Shown here piece by piece: positions 1-12,300 of a DNA stretch of 51,594 nt. The notes below the pieces were generated by a model. It did no database searches. It was not told where the DNA came from and saw nothing but the letters and a program-made list of their open reading frames with translations. The position numbers and the translations under genes are program-made. The DNA lies in the IMG/VR virus record IMGVR_UViG_2563366877_000002; one strand, written 5' to 3'. Within the stretch, counting starts at the first letter, position 1, and each line of letters starts with the position of its first letter. The stretch is from a virus. Its lineage: Duplodnaviria > Heunggongvirae > Uroviricota > Caudoviricetes.

Positions 1-1284
1 TTACAGACTTCTGGAAGGTTGCGCAGCTCTTACAACACGCGGTTGATCTTCCGCGGCGTCTTCCAGCGCACTTAAATCACGGTCTTTCACTTCTGGCATT
101 TTCAGCGCAGAGATTAAACCAATCACTGAATATGCCATGATCATAATGGCGATCGGATACCAGGATTCCGTCATGGTGCAGAAAATACCCGCCAGGATAG
201 GACCTAAACCGGAAGCGATAAGACCACCAATTTCTTTAGAAATAGCCATCCGGGTAAAGCGGTTTTTACAGCCGAACATTTCTGCCATGGTAATATTTTC
301 CAGAGCAAATAATCCCAGCACCGCACAGTTATGAATCACAATCAGTGCAACCATAATGGTGCTCGGGGCATAGCTTTTATCTACGATGATAGAAAGCATT
401 GGCCATGCCAGCACAATCGCGGAGGTATTCATAATAATATACGGGATCCGGCGACCAATTTTATCGGATAACCAACCAAGGAACGGAATGGTCATAAAGC
501 CGAGAATCGAACTGATCATCAATGCATCTGTTGGAATTGCTTTGTTAAACAATAACGTCTGCACTAAATAGCCCGCAAGGAAAGTCTGAATTAAACCTGA
601 GTTACCCGCCTGACCAAAACGCAGCCCTGTTGCCAGCCAGAAGGATTTGCTCTGGAACATGCTACCAGCAGGTGCAGGTTTTGCTGTCGGTTGGTTGCTG
701 TCGTTAACCTTCTCAAAAACCGGGCTTTCTTTCAGATTCATACGCAACCAGATAGCAAAGACCATCACGACAACGCTCGCCAGGAACGGTATACGCCATC
801 CCCACGCCAGCAGTTCCTCTTTACTGAGAATGAAGAACATAAAGGCCCAGATTGCCGTTGCGCTTAAAGTTCCGCAGTTAGTTCCCATAGCCACAAATGA
901 GGAGATAATTCCGCGCTTACCTTTTGGCGCATATTCCGCCAGCATCGTACCGGCACCGGAAATTTCCGCACCTGCACCCAATCCCTGAATAATACGCAGC
1001 GTCACCAGCAAGATGGGGGCAAAAACACCAATCTGTGCATAGGTCGGTAACACACCAATTAAGGTGGTACAGATCCCCATCATGGTGATGGTAATAAAGA
1101 GCACTTTTTTACGCCCTATTCTGTCGCCCATTTTGCCGAAAATAAATGCTCCGACAATACGCGCCACATAACCTGCACCGTAGGTTCCCATTGCCAGAAT
1201 TAACGCCATTGCCGTTGATGATTCAGGAAAAAATATTTCATGAAACACTAACGCTGCGCCGAGCGAATATAACTGGAAATCCAT
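1..1284 (-). CDS. ydfJ: MFS transporter, metabolite:H+ symporter type (host gene at prophage edge)
   Basis: 427-aa ORF with GxxxDRxGRK loop motif (GKMGDRIGRKK) and multiple hydrophobic spans; symbol from remembered synteny next to Qin pin/ydfK, not from a search. Confidence 0.6.
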   Translation of the reverse strand: MDFQLYSLGAALVFHEIFFPESSTAMALILAMGTYGAGYVARIVGAFIFGKMGDRIGRKKVLFITITMMGICTTLIGVLPTYAQIGVFAPILLVTLRIIQGLGAGAEISGAGTMLAEYAPKGKRGIISSFVAMGTNCGTLSATAIWAFMFFILSKEELLAWGWRIPFLASVVVMVFAIWLRMNLKESPVFEKVNDSNQPTAKPAPAGSMFQSKSFWLATGLRFGQAGNSGLIQTFLAGYLVQTLLFNKAIPTDALMISSILGFMTIPFLGWLSDKIGRRIPYIIMNTSAIVLAWPMLSIIVDKSYAPSTIMVALIVIHNCAVLGLFALENITMAEMFGCKNRFTRMAISKEIGGLIASGLGPILAGIFCTMTESWYPIAIMIMAYSVIGLISALKMPEVKDRDLSALEDAAEDQPRVVRAAQPSRSL

Positions 1285-1888
1285 AATTCACAGGTGTTTT
1301 TTCCCATCCTGTGGTTTCCTTGGCGTTTTCTAGGTTTTTTCAGATAGTTGCATTTTTTAAAAAGCATCCTAAGTTCGATCTCAGTGTCTATCTGGGGCCT
1401 ATTTCTGTCCCATATATGCCCCAAAAAAAACTCCCCAACAGATAAGTAGTTTTTTCATGGATTTATGCGTAAAATCAAGAACGGCTGGAAATCATTCAAT
1501 ACTCACACTATCGAAAAATTTACCAGCCAACCGCAGCACGTTCTTGCATAAGGCGTGTCTGCGGTTTTTCAACTATTCAGATACATCACTCCCATCACAT
1601 TCATTCCTCCGCATCAAAGGCATATAGGCTATATCACCTTGATATTTTTATTTTTCAGATAAAAACTGTTATCTATGTATACTTTTAAACCCAATCCGTG
1701 TAGAGTCTCTGCATAAGATAGTTTGCAGTTGCCGCTTCAGCTTGCGCCATAAACCGCCTGATTTTTGCTGCCACCTGTTAGCATTCCTGTATACCTGAAA
1801 CGACAATGTTTATCTACGAACTTTAAGAACACCCAAGATAAAAATTGTCAACTATATCATATATAACACATTACTAATTCGAGGCTAT

Positions 1889-2002
1889 ATGAACAGCATA
1901 CTGATAATCACATCTCTCCTTATCATATTCAGCATTTTTAGTCATGCCCTAATAAAATTAGGGATTGGCATATCCAATAACCCAGACAAAACCGATGTAT
2001 AA
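1889..2002 (+). CDS. candidate 37-aa small hydrophobic protein ([37 protein letters not shown])
   Basis: ATG preceded by GAGG about 5 nt upstream; one predicted transmembrane span; not in ORF track (below 60 aa); hand translated. Confidence 0.3.
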
Positions 2003-2070
2003 GTCAACATATCCTGAATCAGACATACAATATCGCAATGAAAATCAATAATATTTTAAGGAATATCTTC

Positions 2071-2304
2071 ATGAAATCAAAAGACACCCTAAAGTGGTTC
2101 CCTGCGCAGCTTCCTGAAGTAAGAATTATCCTAGGGGATGCTGTAGTGGAAGTAGCAAAACAGGGAAGACCTATCAATACCAGAACATTGCTTGATTACA
2201 TTGAAGGAAACATAAAGAAAAAATCATGGCTGGATAACAAAGAATTATTACAAACAGCGATATCAGTTCTTAAAGACAACCAAAATTTAAATGGTAAAAT
2301 GTAA
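2071..2304 (+). CDS. ydfK: YdfK/YnaE-like small protein (cold-shock-associated prophage gene)
   Basis: 77 aa from internal Met of track ORF 2038-2304; sits immediately upstream of pin as ydfK does in Qin; identity from memory. Confidence 0.5.
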   Translation: MKSKDTLKWFPAQLPEVRIILGDAVVEVAKQGRPINTRTLLDYIEGNIKKKSWLDNKELLQTAISVLKDNQNLNGKM

Positions 2305-2620
2305 TATAATAAACTTACTTTTTTATCATTTTTCCACTTTAACAACATTTTGCTCCACTTTTCCACGACCAAACAACTTGAAATCTGGTTAAAATAACAC
2401 GCAACACTATTCTTCTTCCTTGAGTCCGCCCGGAACTCGAAAAACAAACCGAGTTAAAGCCATTTTTCACAAAATCGATTTTGGGTCTCACCAAAATTAC
2501 GGGGTTGCATACGCATTCGTTTATTTTCGAACGTGTACATACAAATATGCACAAAAATAATCAAAATTATTTTCTGAGATGCATTATGATATGAACACCA
2601 ATTTCGTATAGAGTCTCACT

Positions 2621-3211
2621 ATGTCTCGAATTTTTGCTTACTGTCGGATATCAACGCTGGATCAGACCACCGAAAATCAACGCCGGGAAATCGAAAGTGC
2701 AGGTTTTAAAATCAAACCTCAGCAAATAATCGAAGAACACATTAGCGGCTCAGCAGCAACCAGTGAGCGTCCTGGTTTTAACCGGTTGCTTGCTCGCCTG
2801 AAATGTGGTGATCAATTGATTGTGACAAAACTGGATCGCCTTGGTTGTAATGCAATGGATATCAGGAAAACAGTGGAACAACTGACCGAAACAGGTATCA
2901 GAGTGCATTGCTTAGCATTGGGGGGCATTGACCTGACCAGTCCAACAGGAAAAATGATGATGCAAGTAATTTCAGCAGTCGCTGAATTTGAACGAGACCT
3001 TTTACTTGAACGCACTCATTCCGGGATAGTAAGAGCCCGGGGCGCAGGGAAACGTTTTGGTCGACCACCTGTGTTAAATGAAGAACAGAAACAGGTGGTA
3101 TTCGAACGAATTAAGTCAGGTGTAAGTATAAGTGCCATTGCCCGGGAATTCAAAACCTCGCGGCAAACCATTTTAAGAGCCAAAGCAAAACTTCAGACAC
3201 CTGACATATAA
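2621..3211 (+). CDS. pinQ: serine recombinase / DNA invertase, Pin-Hin-Gin family
   Basis: 196 aa; N-terminal catalytic region CRISTLDQ with Ser, C-terminal HTH; convergent with tfa. Confidence 0.85.
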
Positions 3212-3308
3212 AAAATAATCTCGGTGTGAGATGCTTTACGTCTTCCAAGCCACCTTCCTTGCCGTAAATGGAAAGATACATCTAATTATAGAATTTATAT
3301 GTTTTACC

Positions 3309-3884
3309 CTACGGCAGTGCTGGCCATTCAATATCCTGTGCAGTTGACGTATCAACACGGTTCAGCAATACCCGATACTTTTTCCATGCTTCCAGCAACG
3401 AGATTTCTTCCTCCGTTGCAATTTCCAGATCTGCAGCATCCTGAAGCGGCGCAATATGCTCACTGGCTACCTGCATCAGGCTGTTTTTTGTTTCTTCCGC
3501 CTCCCGGATCCGGAACAGTTTTTCTGCTTCCGTATCCTTCACCCAGGCTGTGCCGTTCCACTTCTGATATTCCCCTCCCGGCGATAACCAGGTAACATTT
3601 TCCGGTAACGGACCGAGTTCAGAAATAAATAACGCGTCGCCGGAAGCCACGTCATAAACCGTTTTACCCCGATGTTCTTCAACGAGATGCCACGATGCCT
3701 CATCACTGTTGAAAACAGCCACGAAGCCTGCCGGAATATCTGGCGGTGCAATATCGATACTGTTTGCTGGCAGACCTGTATGAGGCGGAATATATGCGTC
3801 ACCTTCACCAATAAATTCATTAGTTCCGGCCAGCAGATTATAAATTTTTATGGTCCGTGGTTGTTCACTCATTCTGAATGCCAT
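3309..3884 (-). CDS. tfa: tail fiber assembly protein Tfa
   Basis: 191 aa, lambda Tfa-like; start overlaps stf stop (ATGA). Confidence 0.85.
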
Positions 3885-6800
3885 TATGCAAGCCTCACAA
3901 TATAGTTAAATGCGATGTTTTTGACGGTGTTTTCCGCGTTACCAGCAGCGTTAACGGTGATGGTATGTCCATGTGAACCAATCGCAACGGAGTGCGTATG
4001 AGCACCAATACCGACAGTATGTGCGTGTGCACCTGCGCTTGCAGCAGTACCCGATACAGAGTGCGTATGAGCGCCTGCAGAAGAAGTGTTAACACTGTAT
4101 TTAGAATAATCAGGTGATCCACTTCCCGGAGCACCACTGGAACCACCTGAAACAAATGTCATCGAATGGGTATGTGCACCGGCTGAAGCAGCCGTACCGC
4201 TAACACTATGGGTATGCGCACCAGTGTTATTCGTGGATTTAGTGCCGTAATCAAACGACGATGTGGTTTTCGTCCCCAAATCCGTACTGGATACGCTGGC
4301 GCTGTGGGTGTGTGATTTAATGCCGTCCTGTTCCTGAGACAATACGGCTCGATCACTGGCGGGCTTGCCCTTAATCGTCCAGCCACGCATATCAGGGATC
4401 ACGCCTGACGGATAAGCGGCTGCAAGTTTCGGGTAAGCAGATTTGTCAAAAGTCTGCCCCTGCATCAGGGCATAACCAGACGGAACGGTATCTGATGGCC
4501 ACGGGATTGGTGCACCGACTGGATAAAACTCTGCAGGAGGATGAGCCGAGGTGTAAAGCTGCGCCCACGGCGACCAGTTTGCGTCGGTCGTATCCCGTCG
4601 TGAACGAATAAATGCCGGAGCATGAGCACCGCTTGTACCACTCCAGCCGATGAGTAACTCACCTTCGCCAACGGCTGTCATCCCTTTCAGGTGAATGATA
4701 TTTCCATACGCTGTTGGATATCCGTTGTTATACACCTCGTATAACTCAAGACCTGTTGCCCCCTGCGTATTGTCTGTCAGCGCGGTTACCCGACCTTTTG
4801 AAGACAGATTAACTGATGATACTGCTGTTCCACCTGACGGTAACGCCCCGATCTCTGATGCCGTTGGCTTATTTCTGGAGTTATAGTCCCTTCGCCAGCC
4901 AGGTGAATAATCTGTTCCGTGATTAATATAGGTAAACTGGGCGTTAGTTGTTCCACCACCAGTGGAGGTGGTCGGTGTGGTAATGCGGATCGTCATCGCT
5001 GACTTTATCCCCATTACTTCAATGACAGCTCCGGCGAGATGAATATTACCGCAGCCAGTATCAGTAATGATTTTATTATTGCCATAAGACCAGGAACCCT
5101 TGCACATCCAGTATGGATGGTTAAATGCTCCCTGAGAATCCAGCCACTCGATAAACTGTGCAGTCGTCCAGTTTCCTGTTGTTGTGCTTACTGACCCACC
5201 GAAGGCACGGCAGGCACCAATATTTTTCGTAAAGGTGTCTTTGCCAGGGATATCCGCACCGTTCTGATCTTTCTGCAGACGTTTCTCAGCATTGTCATTG
5301 GCTGCTTTTACTGCCTTTGGCGTTGCCGCCAGCGTTTCAGACGTGCTGTTGGTCGCGCTGCTTAGCTGGATTATCCCTTTCTGTGCTGTCGTTGCATCCT
5401 GTGCGGTGTATTTCCCGTTAGCCAGGTCATACGCGGCCTTAACGGCTTTTGGCGTTGCCGCCAGTGACTCGGAAGTGCTGTTGGTCGCACTGCTGAGCTG
5501 TACTATCCCCTTTTTCGTCGTGCTCGCATCCTCAAGCGCCACGGCGGATGCAATATCCTCTGCCCGTTTTGCCGCTGTCTCAGCGCGCGTTGCTGCAGAT
5601 TCCGCCGTACTTTTGCTCTGAGCTGCTGCCGTCGCACTGCCAGCTGCCTCTGTCGCCTTCGTGGATGCCGTCGTGGCGCTACCCTTCGCTGCTGACGCCT
5701 GTCTGGTCGCCTCATCTTTTGAAGCAGACGCAGATGATGCCGATGACGACGCCGAACTGGCTGACGATGCGGCAGCCGTTTTTGAGGATTCTGCGCTGGT
5801 TTCCGACGCTTTCGCGTTCGTTTCGGATGTCTTCGCTGCGGAAGCAGACCTCGCTGCTGCGCTGGCCTGTTCAGTGGCTTCGCCAGCCTTCGTTGTGGCT
5901 GTTGAAGCAGACGATGCGGCGCTTTCTGCCGATTTTCCGGCGGCGGTGGCACTGGCTGAGGCCTGCCCGGCACTTGTTGACGCTGCACTGGCAGACGACG
6001 CAGCCGCTGTTTTTGAGCCTGCCGCAGCCGAGGCGCTCTGTCCCGCTGCCGTTTCAGAAGACCTGGCGTTCGTCTCTGACGTTTTTGCCGCCTTCGCGGA
6101 ATTTCCTGCCGCTGTTGCCGAGGAAGCTGCGCTACTGGCGCTCGAGGATGCGTTCGTTTCTGATGATTTTGCCGCCTCTTTTGAAACCGCCGCATCCCGG
6201 GCTGAGGTGGCAGCTTCTGACGCTTTCGTAGTCGCGGTGGATGCAGAAGTGGCTGCTGATTGTTGTGACGCTGCAGCATTCGTTTCTGACGTTTTCGCGG
6301 CACTGGCACTGGTAGCTGCCGCGCTTTTTGAGGACTCTGCAGCGGCAGCACTTTTTGATGCTTCAGTGGCCTTTGTTGATGCCGTTCCTGCGCTGGAAGT
6401 CGCTGACTGAGCCGACGACGCGGCCTGTCCGGCTGACGTGCTGGCTGCGCGTGCTGAGCCTGCAGCATCAGTCGCATGGGTTGCCGCCTCACGGGCTGAT
6501 GTGCTGGCATCACTGGCTGACTTCTTCGCGGCTGCCGTGTTCTGTGCCACCACGGACGCGTTACGCGCCACCTCTTCCACCATCAGCTCAAAACGGCGCA
6601 GTGCCTCCGGACGGGCATCATCCTCCGTCATGGCACCGAGAAAATCATTCAGCGTACCGGGTCGGGAATCTTCATACACTGTGATGGTCCCGGCATGTGA
6701 CGGCGGGAATCCTTCCACCAACAGAATAACGCTGTACTGACCGTACTCAACGTCCATACTGTAACGCCCGGCTTCATCCGGATTTTCAGATGCCAGCGTG

Positions 6801-6907
6801 TTCACCACCACCGTGGTACTGTTACGTTTTGCTTTCAGCTGGATTGTGCAGTTCTGTACCGGTTTTCCTGTGCCGTCTTTCAGTACACCTGAAATTTTTA
6901 CTGCCAT
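3884..6907 (-). CDS. stf: side tail fiber protein Stf (long form)
   Basis: N-terminus [26 protein letters not shown] as lambda Stf; long Ala/Ser/Thr-rich shaft; C-terminal GAHTHS His-rich repeats; start taken at lambda-equivalent Met. Confidence 0.85.
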
Positions 6908-6916
6908 ATTCACCCC

Positions 6917-6971: not shown

Positions 6972-7571
6972 TCAGAATTTATAACCAACACCCACGATGA
7001 ACCCGTCAGTGCGCCAGTCACCACTGCCGGAGCCTTCATAAGCGACATCAATGGCCACGGATTCGGTCGGGTTAAACTGCACGCCAGCTCCCCACGCCAG
7101 AGACGTGTTGCTGTGGCGACCGTCATCACTTCCGGTCAGCACATCGTGCTTTTTCCCCTTGTTGTCAGTTACGCGGAGATAATCCCCGGAGAAAGTCGAC
7201 ACACGGCTGTAAGCCACACCCGCCATCGCATACGCGCTGAACCATTCATTCACGCGCACAGACGGCCCCGCCATTACGCTGAACCAGCGGTTACGAACGG
7301 AATCTTCATGCCAGCGGGTATCGCTGTAACGGGTAATCTGGCGATTCTTGTCTCCTGCATAGCTGAACGACGTCACCATCCCCAGTGTGTCCGTAAACTC
7401 ATAACGGTATTTCACGTTAATCCCGTTCAGATCATCACTGCCGGGAACGTTCGTCCGGGCATGAAGATACCCCGCGCTCAGCGTGGACTGATGTTCAGAC
7501 GCCCATGCAGGCGCACCGGATACGGCCAGACAAATGGCTGCGGACAAAATGGCGGCATAAAGTTTACGCAT
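6972..7571 (-). CDS. lom: outer membrane protein Lom (Ail/Lom family)
   Basis: 199 aa with signal peptide and beta-barrel pattern ending in aromatic residue (GVGYKF). Confidence 0.85.
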
Positions 7572-7620: not shown

Positions 7621-7721
7621 GTTCTGGGTTATAAAATTCAGCTGATACTGATACCTGCTGTGGATTTTTTCATCACCACAACCAGCAGATCGCTGATACT
7701 GGTTGTTGGTGTATGTAGTGG

Positions 7722-12300
<4,579 letters not shown>

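Follow-up and report, generated by a model that had tools for sequence, protein, structure and literature searches.

The gene pinQ encodes a small serine recombinase of 196 aa in the lambdoid prophage of the IMG/VR virus record IMGVR_UViG_2563366877_000002, and it can be compared with several described systems. The Din invertases (PinE of e14, Gin of Mu, Cin of P1 and Hin of Salmonella) have the same fold as PinQ and, apart from R71, the same Ser/Tyr/Arg core, and they likewise have tail-fibre genes as neighbours in a prophage. The TnpR resolvases of Tn3 and γδ are also small serine recombinases, built like PinQ from an N-terminal catalytic domain and a C-terminal helix-turn-helix (HTH). The TIME-RES elements are transposase-less and consist of inverted repeats (IRs), the recombination site res and a resolvase gene; such elements have been captured experimentally (Szuplewska et al. 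2014, PMC4133298). We analysed the whole stretch of DNA (51,594 nucleotides, hereafter the 51.6-kb window), in which an original prediction had seen a Pin-family invertase with no obvious segment to invert. The evidence described below suggests that pinQ is probably the resolvase gene of a small, non-autonomous and degenerate Tn3-family element of the TIME-RES type, with the structure IR-res-tnpR-IR and without a transposase.

The open reading frame (ORF) at 2621-3211 on the plus strand matches the Pfam domains Resolvase (PF00239, E 2.5e-36) and HTH_7 (E 3.8e-11) and is the pinQ gene of a Qin-type lambdoid prophage. In megablast searches with the region 1285-4300, 2,035 of 5,426 complete E. 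coli genomes had matches with a query coverage of 80% or more; these are annotated ynfT - ydfK - pinQ - tfaQ, and identical copies of the gene are called pinQ by PGAP. Identity over this region is 100% in strain 23AR0998 and 98.9% in K-12 derivatives, in which the same gene is pinQ of Qin and pinR of Rac, with the synteny ydfJ' - ynfT - ydfK - pinQ - tfaQ. In contrast to the Qin prophage of K-12, a truncated cryptic remnant, the prophage in the window is nearly complete and has a 1009-aa Stf, Lom, J, head genes and int. In the phage collection, copies of PinQ with 99-100% identity are found in the viable lambdoid phages Tritos, 2H10, mEp460_ev081 and HannyBb, as well as in PhiR phages.

PinQ among the small serine recombinases

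Within the Din/Hin family, the members share about 60-70% identity, and the 5' part of the invertase gene contains a Fis-dependent recombinational enhancer. With PinE and Gin, PinQ shares 38% identity, and with P2/Mu-type phage invertases 38-39%, as opposed to 72-84% identity to plasmid and Tn3-family resolvases, including those of loci L004-L007, and the label of a Pin-family invertase is difficult to maintain in view of these values. In the phage collection, the 99-100% identical copies are followed by a single match at 61%, and all the rest, including all invertases of the Mu, P2 and P1 types, fall below 47%. Homologues were collected by a search of 5.8 billion proteins and of a plasmid collection, and about 75 diverse genomic loci other than pinQ were examined. 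The relatives form a continuum of 60-85% identity that extends over 1,643 plasmid records (E <= 1e-60), Enterobacterales, Methylomonas and other genomes; 150 of these plasmid records are 80-90% identical to PinQ. The DNA homology between pinQ and the plasmid copies extends 50-80 bp 5' of the ATG.

A homologue of Tn3-family transposases lies directly upstream of the resolvase gene in 26 of the ~75 loci, and 19 of the 26 share one transposase family, the full-length form of which has 994 aa and is encoded divergently from tnpR. In L005, whose resolvase is 79% identical to PinQ, the resolvase gene is divergent from a gene annotated by PGAP as Tn3-family transposase. Other relatives are found on plasmids, for example next to parA/parG on Erwinia pEA29 and, on a ColV-type plasmid, beside a RelE/ParE pair (L004, 84.5% identity). 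In phmmer searches, PinQ matched the γδ resolvase with an E value of 2.7e-22 and the Tn3 resolvase with 6e-22, both weaker than its match to Gin. The sequence similarity of PinQ to the Tn3 and γδ enzymes is thus distant, and its clade appears to be a separate TnpR lineage that is slightly closer to Gin by score. As judged from its sequence, PinQ is a member of the TnpR-type resolvase clade and not a protein of the Din family (Gin/Cin/Pin/Hin); it clusters with the Tn3-family and plasmid resolvases that have a res of the TGTCCGAAA type.

The catalytic constellation of Tn3 resolvase (Y6, R8, S10, D36, R68, R71) is incomplete in PinQ. The residues Y7, R9, S11 and R73 are retained, but residue 76, which aligns with R71 of γδ and Tn3 and with the matching Arg of Gin, is Cys (DRLGC), as a result of a single C-to-T change (CGT to TGT). 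Of 121 close homologues, 115 have Arg at this position, and the other six are the pinQ/pinR clusters and one cluster of 85% identity; Arg is also present in all 75 of the non-pinQ loci and in 100% of 180 de-duplicated relatives. Glu39 of PinQ aligns with Tn3 D36, but Glu is found here in essentially all 121 homologues and is therefore a trait of the clade rather than a change specific to PinQ. In Tn3 resolvase, recombination by the mutants R71A and R71K was undetectable and cleavage was approximately 1000-fold slower (PMC2794168).

PinQ departs from its relatives at 11 of the 114 positions with a conservation of 95% or more, compared with 0-3 departures (median 0) in 25 control relatives. Among the 11 are Q35 and K61, which align with γδ R32 and E56, residues of the 2-3' interface that resolvases need for assembly of the res synaptosome; the accessory-site-independent NM resolvase was engineered to carry E56K among other changes. 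The pinQ/pinR alleles L012, L013 and L016 have the changes R3Q and V159A, of which the former aligns with γδ R2, another residue of a resolvase inter-dimer interface. The recognition helix of the HTH has been kept (TSRQTILR, as compared with TTRQTILR in relatives), so that DNA binding by PinQ with the specificity of the family is plausible.

Candidate remains of res and of transposon ends

An alignment of upstream regions revealed a conserved tripartite res in front of the gene in 63 of the 75 relatives. Site I, TGnCCGAAACCG-nn-CGGTTTCGTACA, lies at -113 to -115 from the ATG, site II, TGTCCGAAAGT...TTTCGnACA, at -73 to -75, and site III at -30 to -32, with TATAAT between sites II and III. This arrangement matches that of Tn3 res, which has three sites for resolvase dimers (PMC2794168). 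Like Tn3 and γδ, the relatives of PinQ have a three-subsite res just upstream of tnpR and a tnpR that is divergent from tnpA, and the half-site starts with TGTCCG as well.

Position weight matrices built from the 63 relatives with all three subsites identified relics of the three sites upstream of pinQ, all on the plus strand. The relic of crossover site I (CATACGCATTCGTTTATTTTCGAACG, 2508-2533, at -113 from the ATG) scores -5.5 bits, compared with 23.7-46.4 bits (median 41.4) in the relatives, and is identical to the consensus TGnCCGAAACCGnnCGGTTTCGTACA at 13 of 26 positions. The relic of accessory site II (2548-2579, at -73) scores 6.5 bits as opposed to 25.7-52.5, and that of accessory site III (2591-2610, at -30), which overlaps the pinQ promoter and leader, 10.8 bits as opposed to 17.2-34.6. 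All three scores are below those of every one of the 63 relatives with a functional-grade res, and the relics of sites II and III are the top matches to their matrices across the window. An intact site I is absent from the whole window, in which the best score was 0.8 bits, compared with a mean of 3.4 for shuffled sequences. On these scores, a tripartite res would be present at pinQ by descent, without being of functional grade, and its crossover site I is essentially destroyed.

A prophage allele in E. coli (L087, 6001-6591, GCA_910593615.1), which has a coding sequence of almost the plasmid type (93.7% identical to L004), keeps Arg76 and has the synteny YnaE - pin - tfa, scores 28.1 and 25.8 bits for sites II and III but has the same decayed site I, from which it follows that the crossover site was lost first. 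This allele comes from a 5.4-Mb contig and was judged reliable. Its tfa gene is interrupted by an IS66 element. Four other alleles, all on short metagenome or Logan contigs, were not used as a decay series. In three of them (L089-L091), the 5' ~240 nt of the coding sequence are identical to L004 and the rest is identical to pinQ, and an intact res of the plasmid type is present in L089 and L090; L088 has the same breakpoint, but its 5' part is L004-like rather than identical and its upstream sequence is too short to show sites I and II. The pin genes of all four carry Arg76 and are followed by a phage tfa. These alleles are either natural recombinants between plasmid and prophage or assembly chimeras.

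A direct repeat (1689-1709 and 2597-2617, 17 of 21 positions identical, within 1659-1710 and 2560-2618) overlaps both the site III relic and the leader of pinQ. Such a match may be due to chance or may be the trace of a second cassette; as the relic of such a cassette it was rejected as marginal, with an alignment score of 35 against a 95th percentile of 33 for shuffled sequences.

On the ColV-type plasmid, the pair of res and resolvase gene is bounded by 38-bp IRs of the Tn3 family (GGGG...TAAG), GGGGTCAGTTTGGAATTCGGAAAATAAACCATGTTAAG (IR-L) and GGGGTCCGCTTGGAAAACGGAAAATATCCCACGCTAAG, which are identical to each other at 30 of 38 positions. This L004 element has 852 bp and no transposase. IRs of the same family (36-38 of 38 positions) bound full transposons that carry the 994-aa TnpA together with a close relative of PinQ. 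We identified relics of both IRs around pinQ, inverted relative to each other. The IR-L relic (TGAGTCCGCCCGGAACTCGAAAAACAAACCGAGTTAAA, 2421-2458, plus strand) is colinear with L004 in a MAFFT alignment and matches the L004 IR-L at 26 of 38 positions. The IR-R relic (3220-3254, minus strand) matches the L004 IR-R at 25 of 36 positions with gaps and at 25 of 38 without; it has a 3-bp deletion near its outer end, which reads CCACC in the window and CCCCC in other alleles. With roughly 66-69% identity to the reference, the two relics are the best and second-best IR matches in the window on both strands (103 kb), the next best match having 23 of 38.

Directly outside the two relics lie two copies of TTCCT, one at 2416-2420 abutting the outer end of the IR-L relic and the other at 3255-3259 abutting that of the IR-R relic, both of which are found in all pinQ/pinR alleles examined. 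A 5-bp target-site duplication (TSD) is a signature of the Tn3 family (PMC4133298). The putative element (2421-3254) thus has 834 bp; pinQ is its one ORF with a domain match, and a transposase gene is absent. The L004 mini-element is without a 5-bp duplication. The 8 nt outside its IR-R (5638-5645, AAGGAAGA) are the reverse complement of window positions 2413-2420 (TCTTCCTT), outside the IR-L relic, which could reflect coincidence, target preference or common ancestry of the flanks.

The putative element resembles TIME-RES in its 38-bp Tn3-family IRs, its res, its resolvase gene, the lack of a transposase and the 5-bp duplication (PMC4133298). It differs in that both IRs and all res subsites are degenerate and the catalytic Arg is substituted, in that it lies in a lambdoid phage genome and not in a Pseudomonas plasmid, and in the length of its resolvase, 196 aa compared with 309 aa. 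An element of this type would have entered the b-region of an ancestral lambdoid phage by transposition, immediately downstream of tfa, leaving the 5-bp TTCCT duplication; it would then have decayed in place as it was passed on together with the ynfT-ydfK-pinQ end module. In the cassette-free phages lambda, mEp332 and ev099, homology to the window begins only at ~3303-3319 and continues from there onward. For PinQ, the prediction is a strong impairment of catalysis and no capacity for recombination in cis; most likely, the protein is a DNA-binding remnant, crippled as a catalyst, that hitch-hikes with the end module. We infer that it would be at best a very weak recombinase or a trans-acting modulator.

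Invertible segments and action in trans

In contrast to the Din invertases, PinQ has at its locus neither 26-bp inverted crossover sites (..AAACC NN GGTTT..) nor an alternative tail-fibre cassette. The motif AAACCNNGGTTT at up to 2 mismatches has 24 matches in the window, compared with 26 expected by chance, and none of these lies in the gap between pinQ and tfa or in the 600 bp upstream of pin; the pix repeat of e14 has no match in the window at up to 3 mismatches. An inverted-repeat pair bracketing the stf 3' end, tfa and pin was not found, as searches for inverted and direct repeats gave only short pairs at chance level. A tail-fibre coding remnant was not found either between ydfJ and the tfa stop (1285-3308) in tblastn searches with Stf, Tfa and the e14 proteins StfP, TfaP, TfaE and StfE, the best match having an E value of 0.048 in a low-complexity stretch.

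Several statements of the original prediction agree with these data. The gene is indeed convergent with tfa, and the stop codons are 97 bp apart (3212-3308); neither the gap nor the region upstream of pin contains a gix/hix-like site, in line with its own reading of the letters; the scan for Din-type sites that it had proposed for the whole genome, run here on the window, remained at chance level; and paired inverted sites flanking the stf 3' end and tfa, which it had named as evidence that would refute its reading, were searched for and none was found. The recombinase can also be called an orphan, in the sense that a usable recombination site for PinQ is absent both beside the gene and from the window.

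The further suggestion that the gene is a relic of a lost switch did not hold up. In this scenario, the locus descends from a switch like the G segment of Mu or the P segment of e14, from which a deletion removed stf'/tfa' and the crossover sites and left the invertase behind. The position beside stf and tfa does resemble that in e14, Mu and P1, and both the name pin and the frequent annotation "DNA invertase" would agree with such an origin. However, the relics that are present correspond to a tripartite res, two Tn3-family IRs and a 5-bp duplication, whereas stf'/tfa' fragments and Din-type sites are absent. The orientation of pinQ to stf and tfa is opposite to that of pinE, as pinQ reads toward tfa and pinE reads away from its segment. 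The protein itself falls into the Tn3/plasmid resolvase clade and not the Din clade, its recognition helix differs from that of the Din invertases, and the cognate site of its clade has a central spacing of 4 bp instead of 2 bp, in addition to accessory sites. Finally, in Tritos and strain 1428 the tail-fibre modules next to the same cassette are unrelated ones. The lost-switch scenario is already largely refuted and we regard it as extremely improbable; a G-segment-like switch probably never belonged to this locus. If pinQ is the leftover resolvase gene of a mini-transposon, no flip-switch is to be expected beside it.

Several observations weigh against the interpretation of pinQ as the gene of a decayed mini-transposon resolvase with little or no catalytic power. 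An empty target site was not found by a joined-flank search of the 5,426 E. coli genomes, 50,697 phage records and IMG/VR, so that the evidence for an insertion is confined to the IR relics and the TSD, and the IR relics have no more than 25-26 of 36-38 identical positions. In thousands of genomes and in viable phages the pinQ ORF is intact and shows almost no variation, which fits selection or recent spread alike. Among 12 pinQ alleles there are 0-4 nucleotide differences, too few for dN/dS, and the pN/pS value of 0.21 between pinQ and the L004 plasmid copy is determined mostly by the functional lineage. Mutation of R71 leaves Tn3 resolvase "not inert" (PMC2794168), and by analogy PinQ with Cys76 could retain trace activity. 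Over-production of PinQ from pCA24N-pinQ has been reported to raise the inversion of the 1,797-bp P segment of e14 from 30% to 88% (Kirigo et al., NAR 2025, PMC12529663), deletion of pinQ lowers P-segment inversion, and infection with T2 induces pinQ and pinR (PMC12529663). These results argue for some activity of PinQ in trans.

One explanation of the data of Kirigo et al. is that PinQ is a functional orphan invertase that has evolved to act in trans on the pix sites of the e14 P segment, making StfE2/StfP2 chimeras that block adsorption of T2. Survivors were analysed by whole-genome sequencing, the shift to 88% was documented by quantitative PCR of the orientation, the effect was lost in ΔstfP, ΔstfE and Δe14 strains, the induction of pinQ and pinR by T2 points in the same direction, and a cross-reaction of PinQ with pix sites, which would be a further likeness to the Din invertases, has been reported (PMC12529663). 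In addition, the half-site of the PinQ clade (TGTACGAAACCG) resembles the pix half-site shifted by one base, and TCTCCCAAACCA is in the top 0.16% of the 12-mers of the window by clade half-site score.

However, the P segment is locked in a ΔpinE strain in which pinQ and pinR are intact, and neither a control with catalytically dead PinQ nor expression of pinQ in a ΔpinE host was found in the text of the paper (PMC12529663). Over-produced PinE gives 49%, as expected of an unbiased invertase (~50%), and the value of 88% for PinQ suggests selection or bias. PinQ lacks the Arg equivalent to R71 and is, at 38% identity, remote from PinE, from which its recognition helix differs (QTILR compared with STLYK); the pix half-site scores 1.9 bits as opposed to ~20 for each cognate half-site, and the two half-sites of pix are spaced by a central 2 bp, not 4 bp. 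In strain 23AR0998, iraM - icd - rluE are uninterrupted (L093, 2,788,189-2,790,690) and e14 is absent there; this strain is identical to the window over 1285-4300, and the rest of the window is closer to other strains (99.5% to NZ_OW968288.1). Inversions within Qin or Rac were not found by Kirigo et al. (PMC12529663).

The chemistry of Cys76 and the ΔpinE result do not support direct catalysis of P-segment inversion by PinQ, and we consider a functional trans invertase unlikely. The idea of action in trans put forward in the original prediction has published experimental backing in the effect of over-produced PinQ on the P segment, but it is at odds with the locked state of the P segment in the absence of PinE and with the missing Arg.

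PinQ might also be a working resolvase or repressor that acts in trans on the intact res of incoming Tn3-family transposons or of cassettes of ColV-type plasmids, either resolving cointegrates or repressing or jamming res and the tnpA-tnpR control. Its HTH recognition helix is nearly identical to that of relatives with an intact res, and such res sites are common in plasmids of Enterobacteriaceae, with the 1,643 records mentioned above and 150 of them at 80-90%. The L087 allele, in which Arg76 and good sites II and III are kept but site I is no more than a relic, indicates that DNA binding may outlast recombination. Against this, the combination of R76C with Q35 and K61, given the interface role of the aligned γδ residues, predicts a loss of both catalysis and synaptosome assembly, and a res target of this kind is absent from the window. 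On balance, a working resolvase or repressor would seem very unlikely.

PinQ lacks the regulatory interface (the R32Q- and E56K-like changes and, in some alleles, the R2-aligned change) and R71, while the HTH is kept. It could be speculated that lambdoid phages keep PinQ as a DNA-binding pseudo-recombinase with little or no catalytic activity, which binds foreign res or pix-type sites and modulates other recombinases. Such a role is improbable; if it were real, the protein could bias PinE-catalysed inversion of the P segment toward one orientation, which would reconcile the T2-resistance phenotype, the "locked" ΔpinE result and the chemistry of Cys76.

Neighbouring genes and meaning of the locus

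The window starts with the 3' part of ydfJ, an MFS transporter gene (1-1284, minus strand), which is followed by the ydfK ORF in ynfT/ydfK (2038-2304, plus strand). On the other side of pinQ, which at 2621-3211 codes for a protein of the Tn3-family/plasmid resolvase clade, the 97-bp gap to tfa consists of an 8 bp spacer, the 35-bp IR-R relic, the 5-bp duplication and 49 bp of phage DNA. The tail-fibre assembly gene tfa (3309-3884, minus strand; Caudo_TAP, E 9.7e-43) would therefore be a neighbour of the insertion and lies outside the element. It is followed on the same strand by stf (3884-6913, 1009 aa), with the Pfam matches phage_tail_N, fibre repeats and Collar, and by lom (6972-7571). Stf has a very long, repetitive centre rich in Ala, Ser and Thr and His-rich GAHTHS repeats near its C-terminus, and its repeats give rise to many spurious long ORFs in other frames. 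Beyond lom, an IS3-family insertion sequence (7714-8971) with a transposase ORF at 7722-8468 and 26-nt inverted arms at 7714-7739 and 8946-8971 separates lom from the J gene (8956-12297); other lambdoid prophage genes follow, with xis/int as the last.

A tfa 3' stub of ~111 bp accompanies the pinQ cassette in phage Tritos and in strain 1428 of E. coli, where it lies beside an unrelated tail-fibre module; the regions concerned are 3309-3420 in the window, 9592-9818 in L001 and 9025-9135 in L003. The presence of the stub beside unrelated fibre genes shows that there is a recurrent recombination junction inside the 3' end of tfa, at about position 3420 of the window.

The pinQ gene, its orphan status and a proposed function in trans are already in the literature; a link of pinQ or pinR to a Tn3-family origin was not found in the literature searched. 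What is new in the present analysis is the proposed re-classification of PinQ as a TnpR-type protein, the candidate decayed IR-res-tnpR-IR mini-transposon with its duplication, and the Cys in the position equivalent to R71. These findings concern genes that are present in thousands of E. coli and Shigella genomes and in several viable lambdoid phages and that are routinely annotated "DNA invertase". The anti-phage mechanism proposed in 2025 presumes that PinQ is an active invertase; descent from a resolvase, the decay of res and of the transposon ends and the loss of the Arg would alter the reading of that mechanism and the controls that it needs. For annotation, PinQ/PinR-like proteins on plasmids and transposons should be regarded as TnpR-type resolvases. 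The locus itself would document a transposase-less res-resolvase mini-transposon that became fixed in a phage genome, and would explain how a pin gene comes to have nothing to invert.

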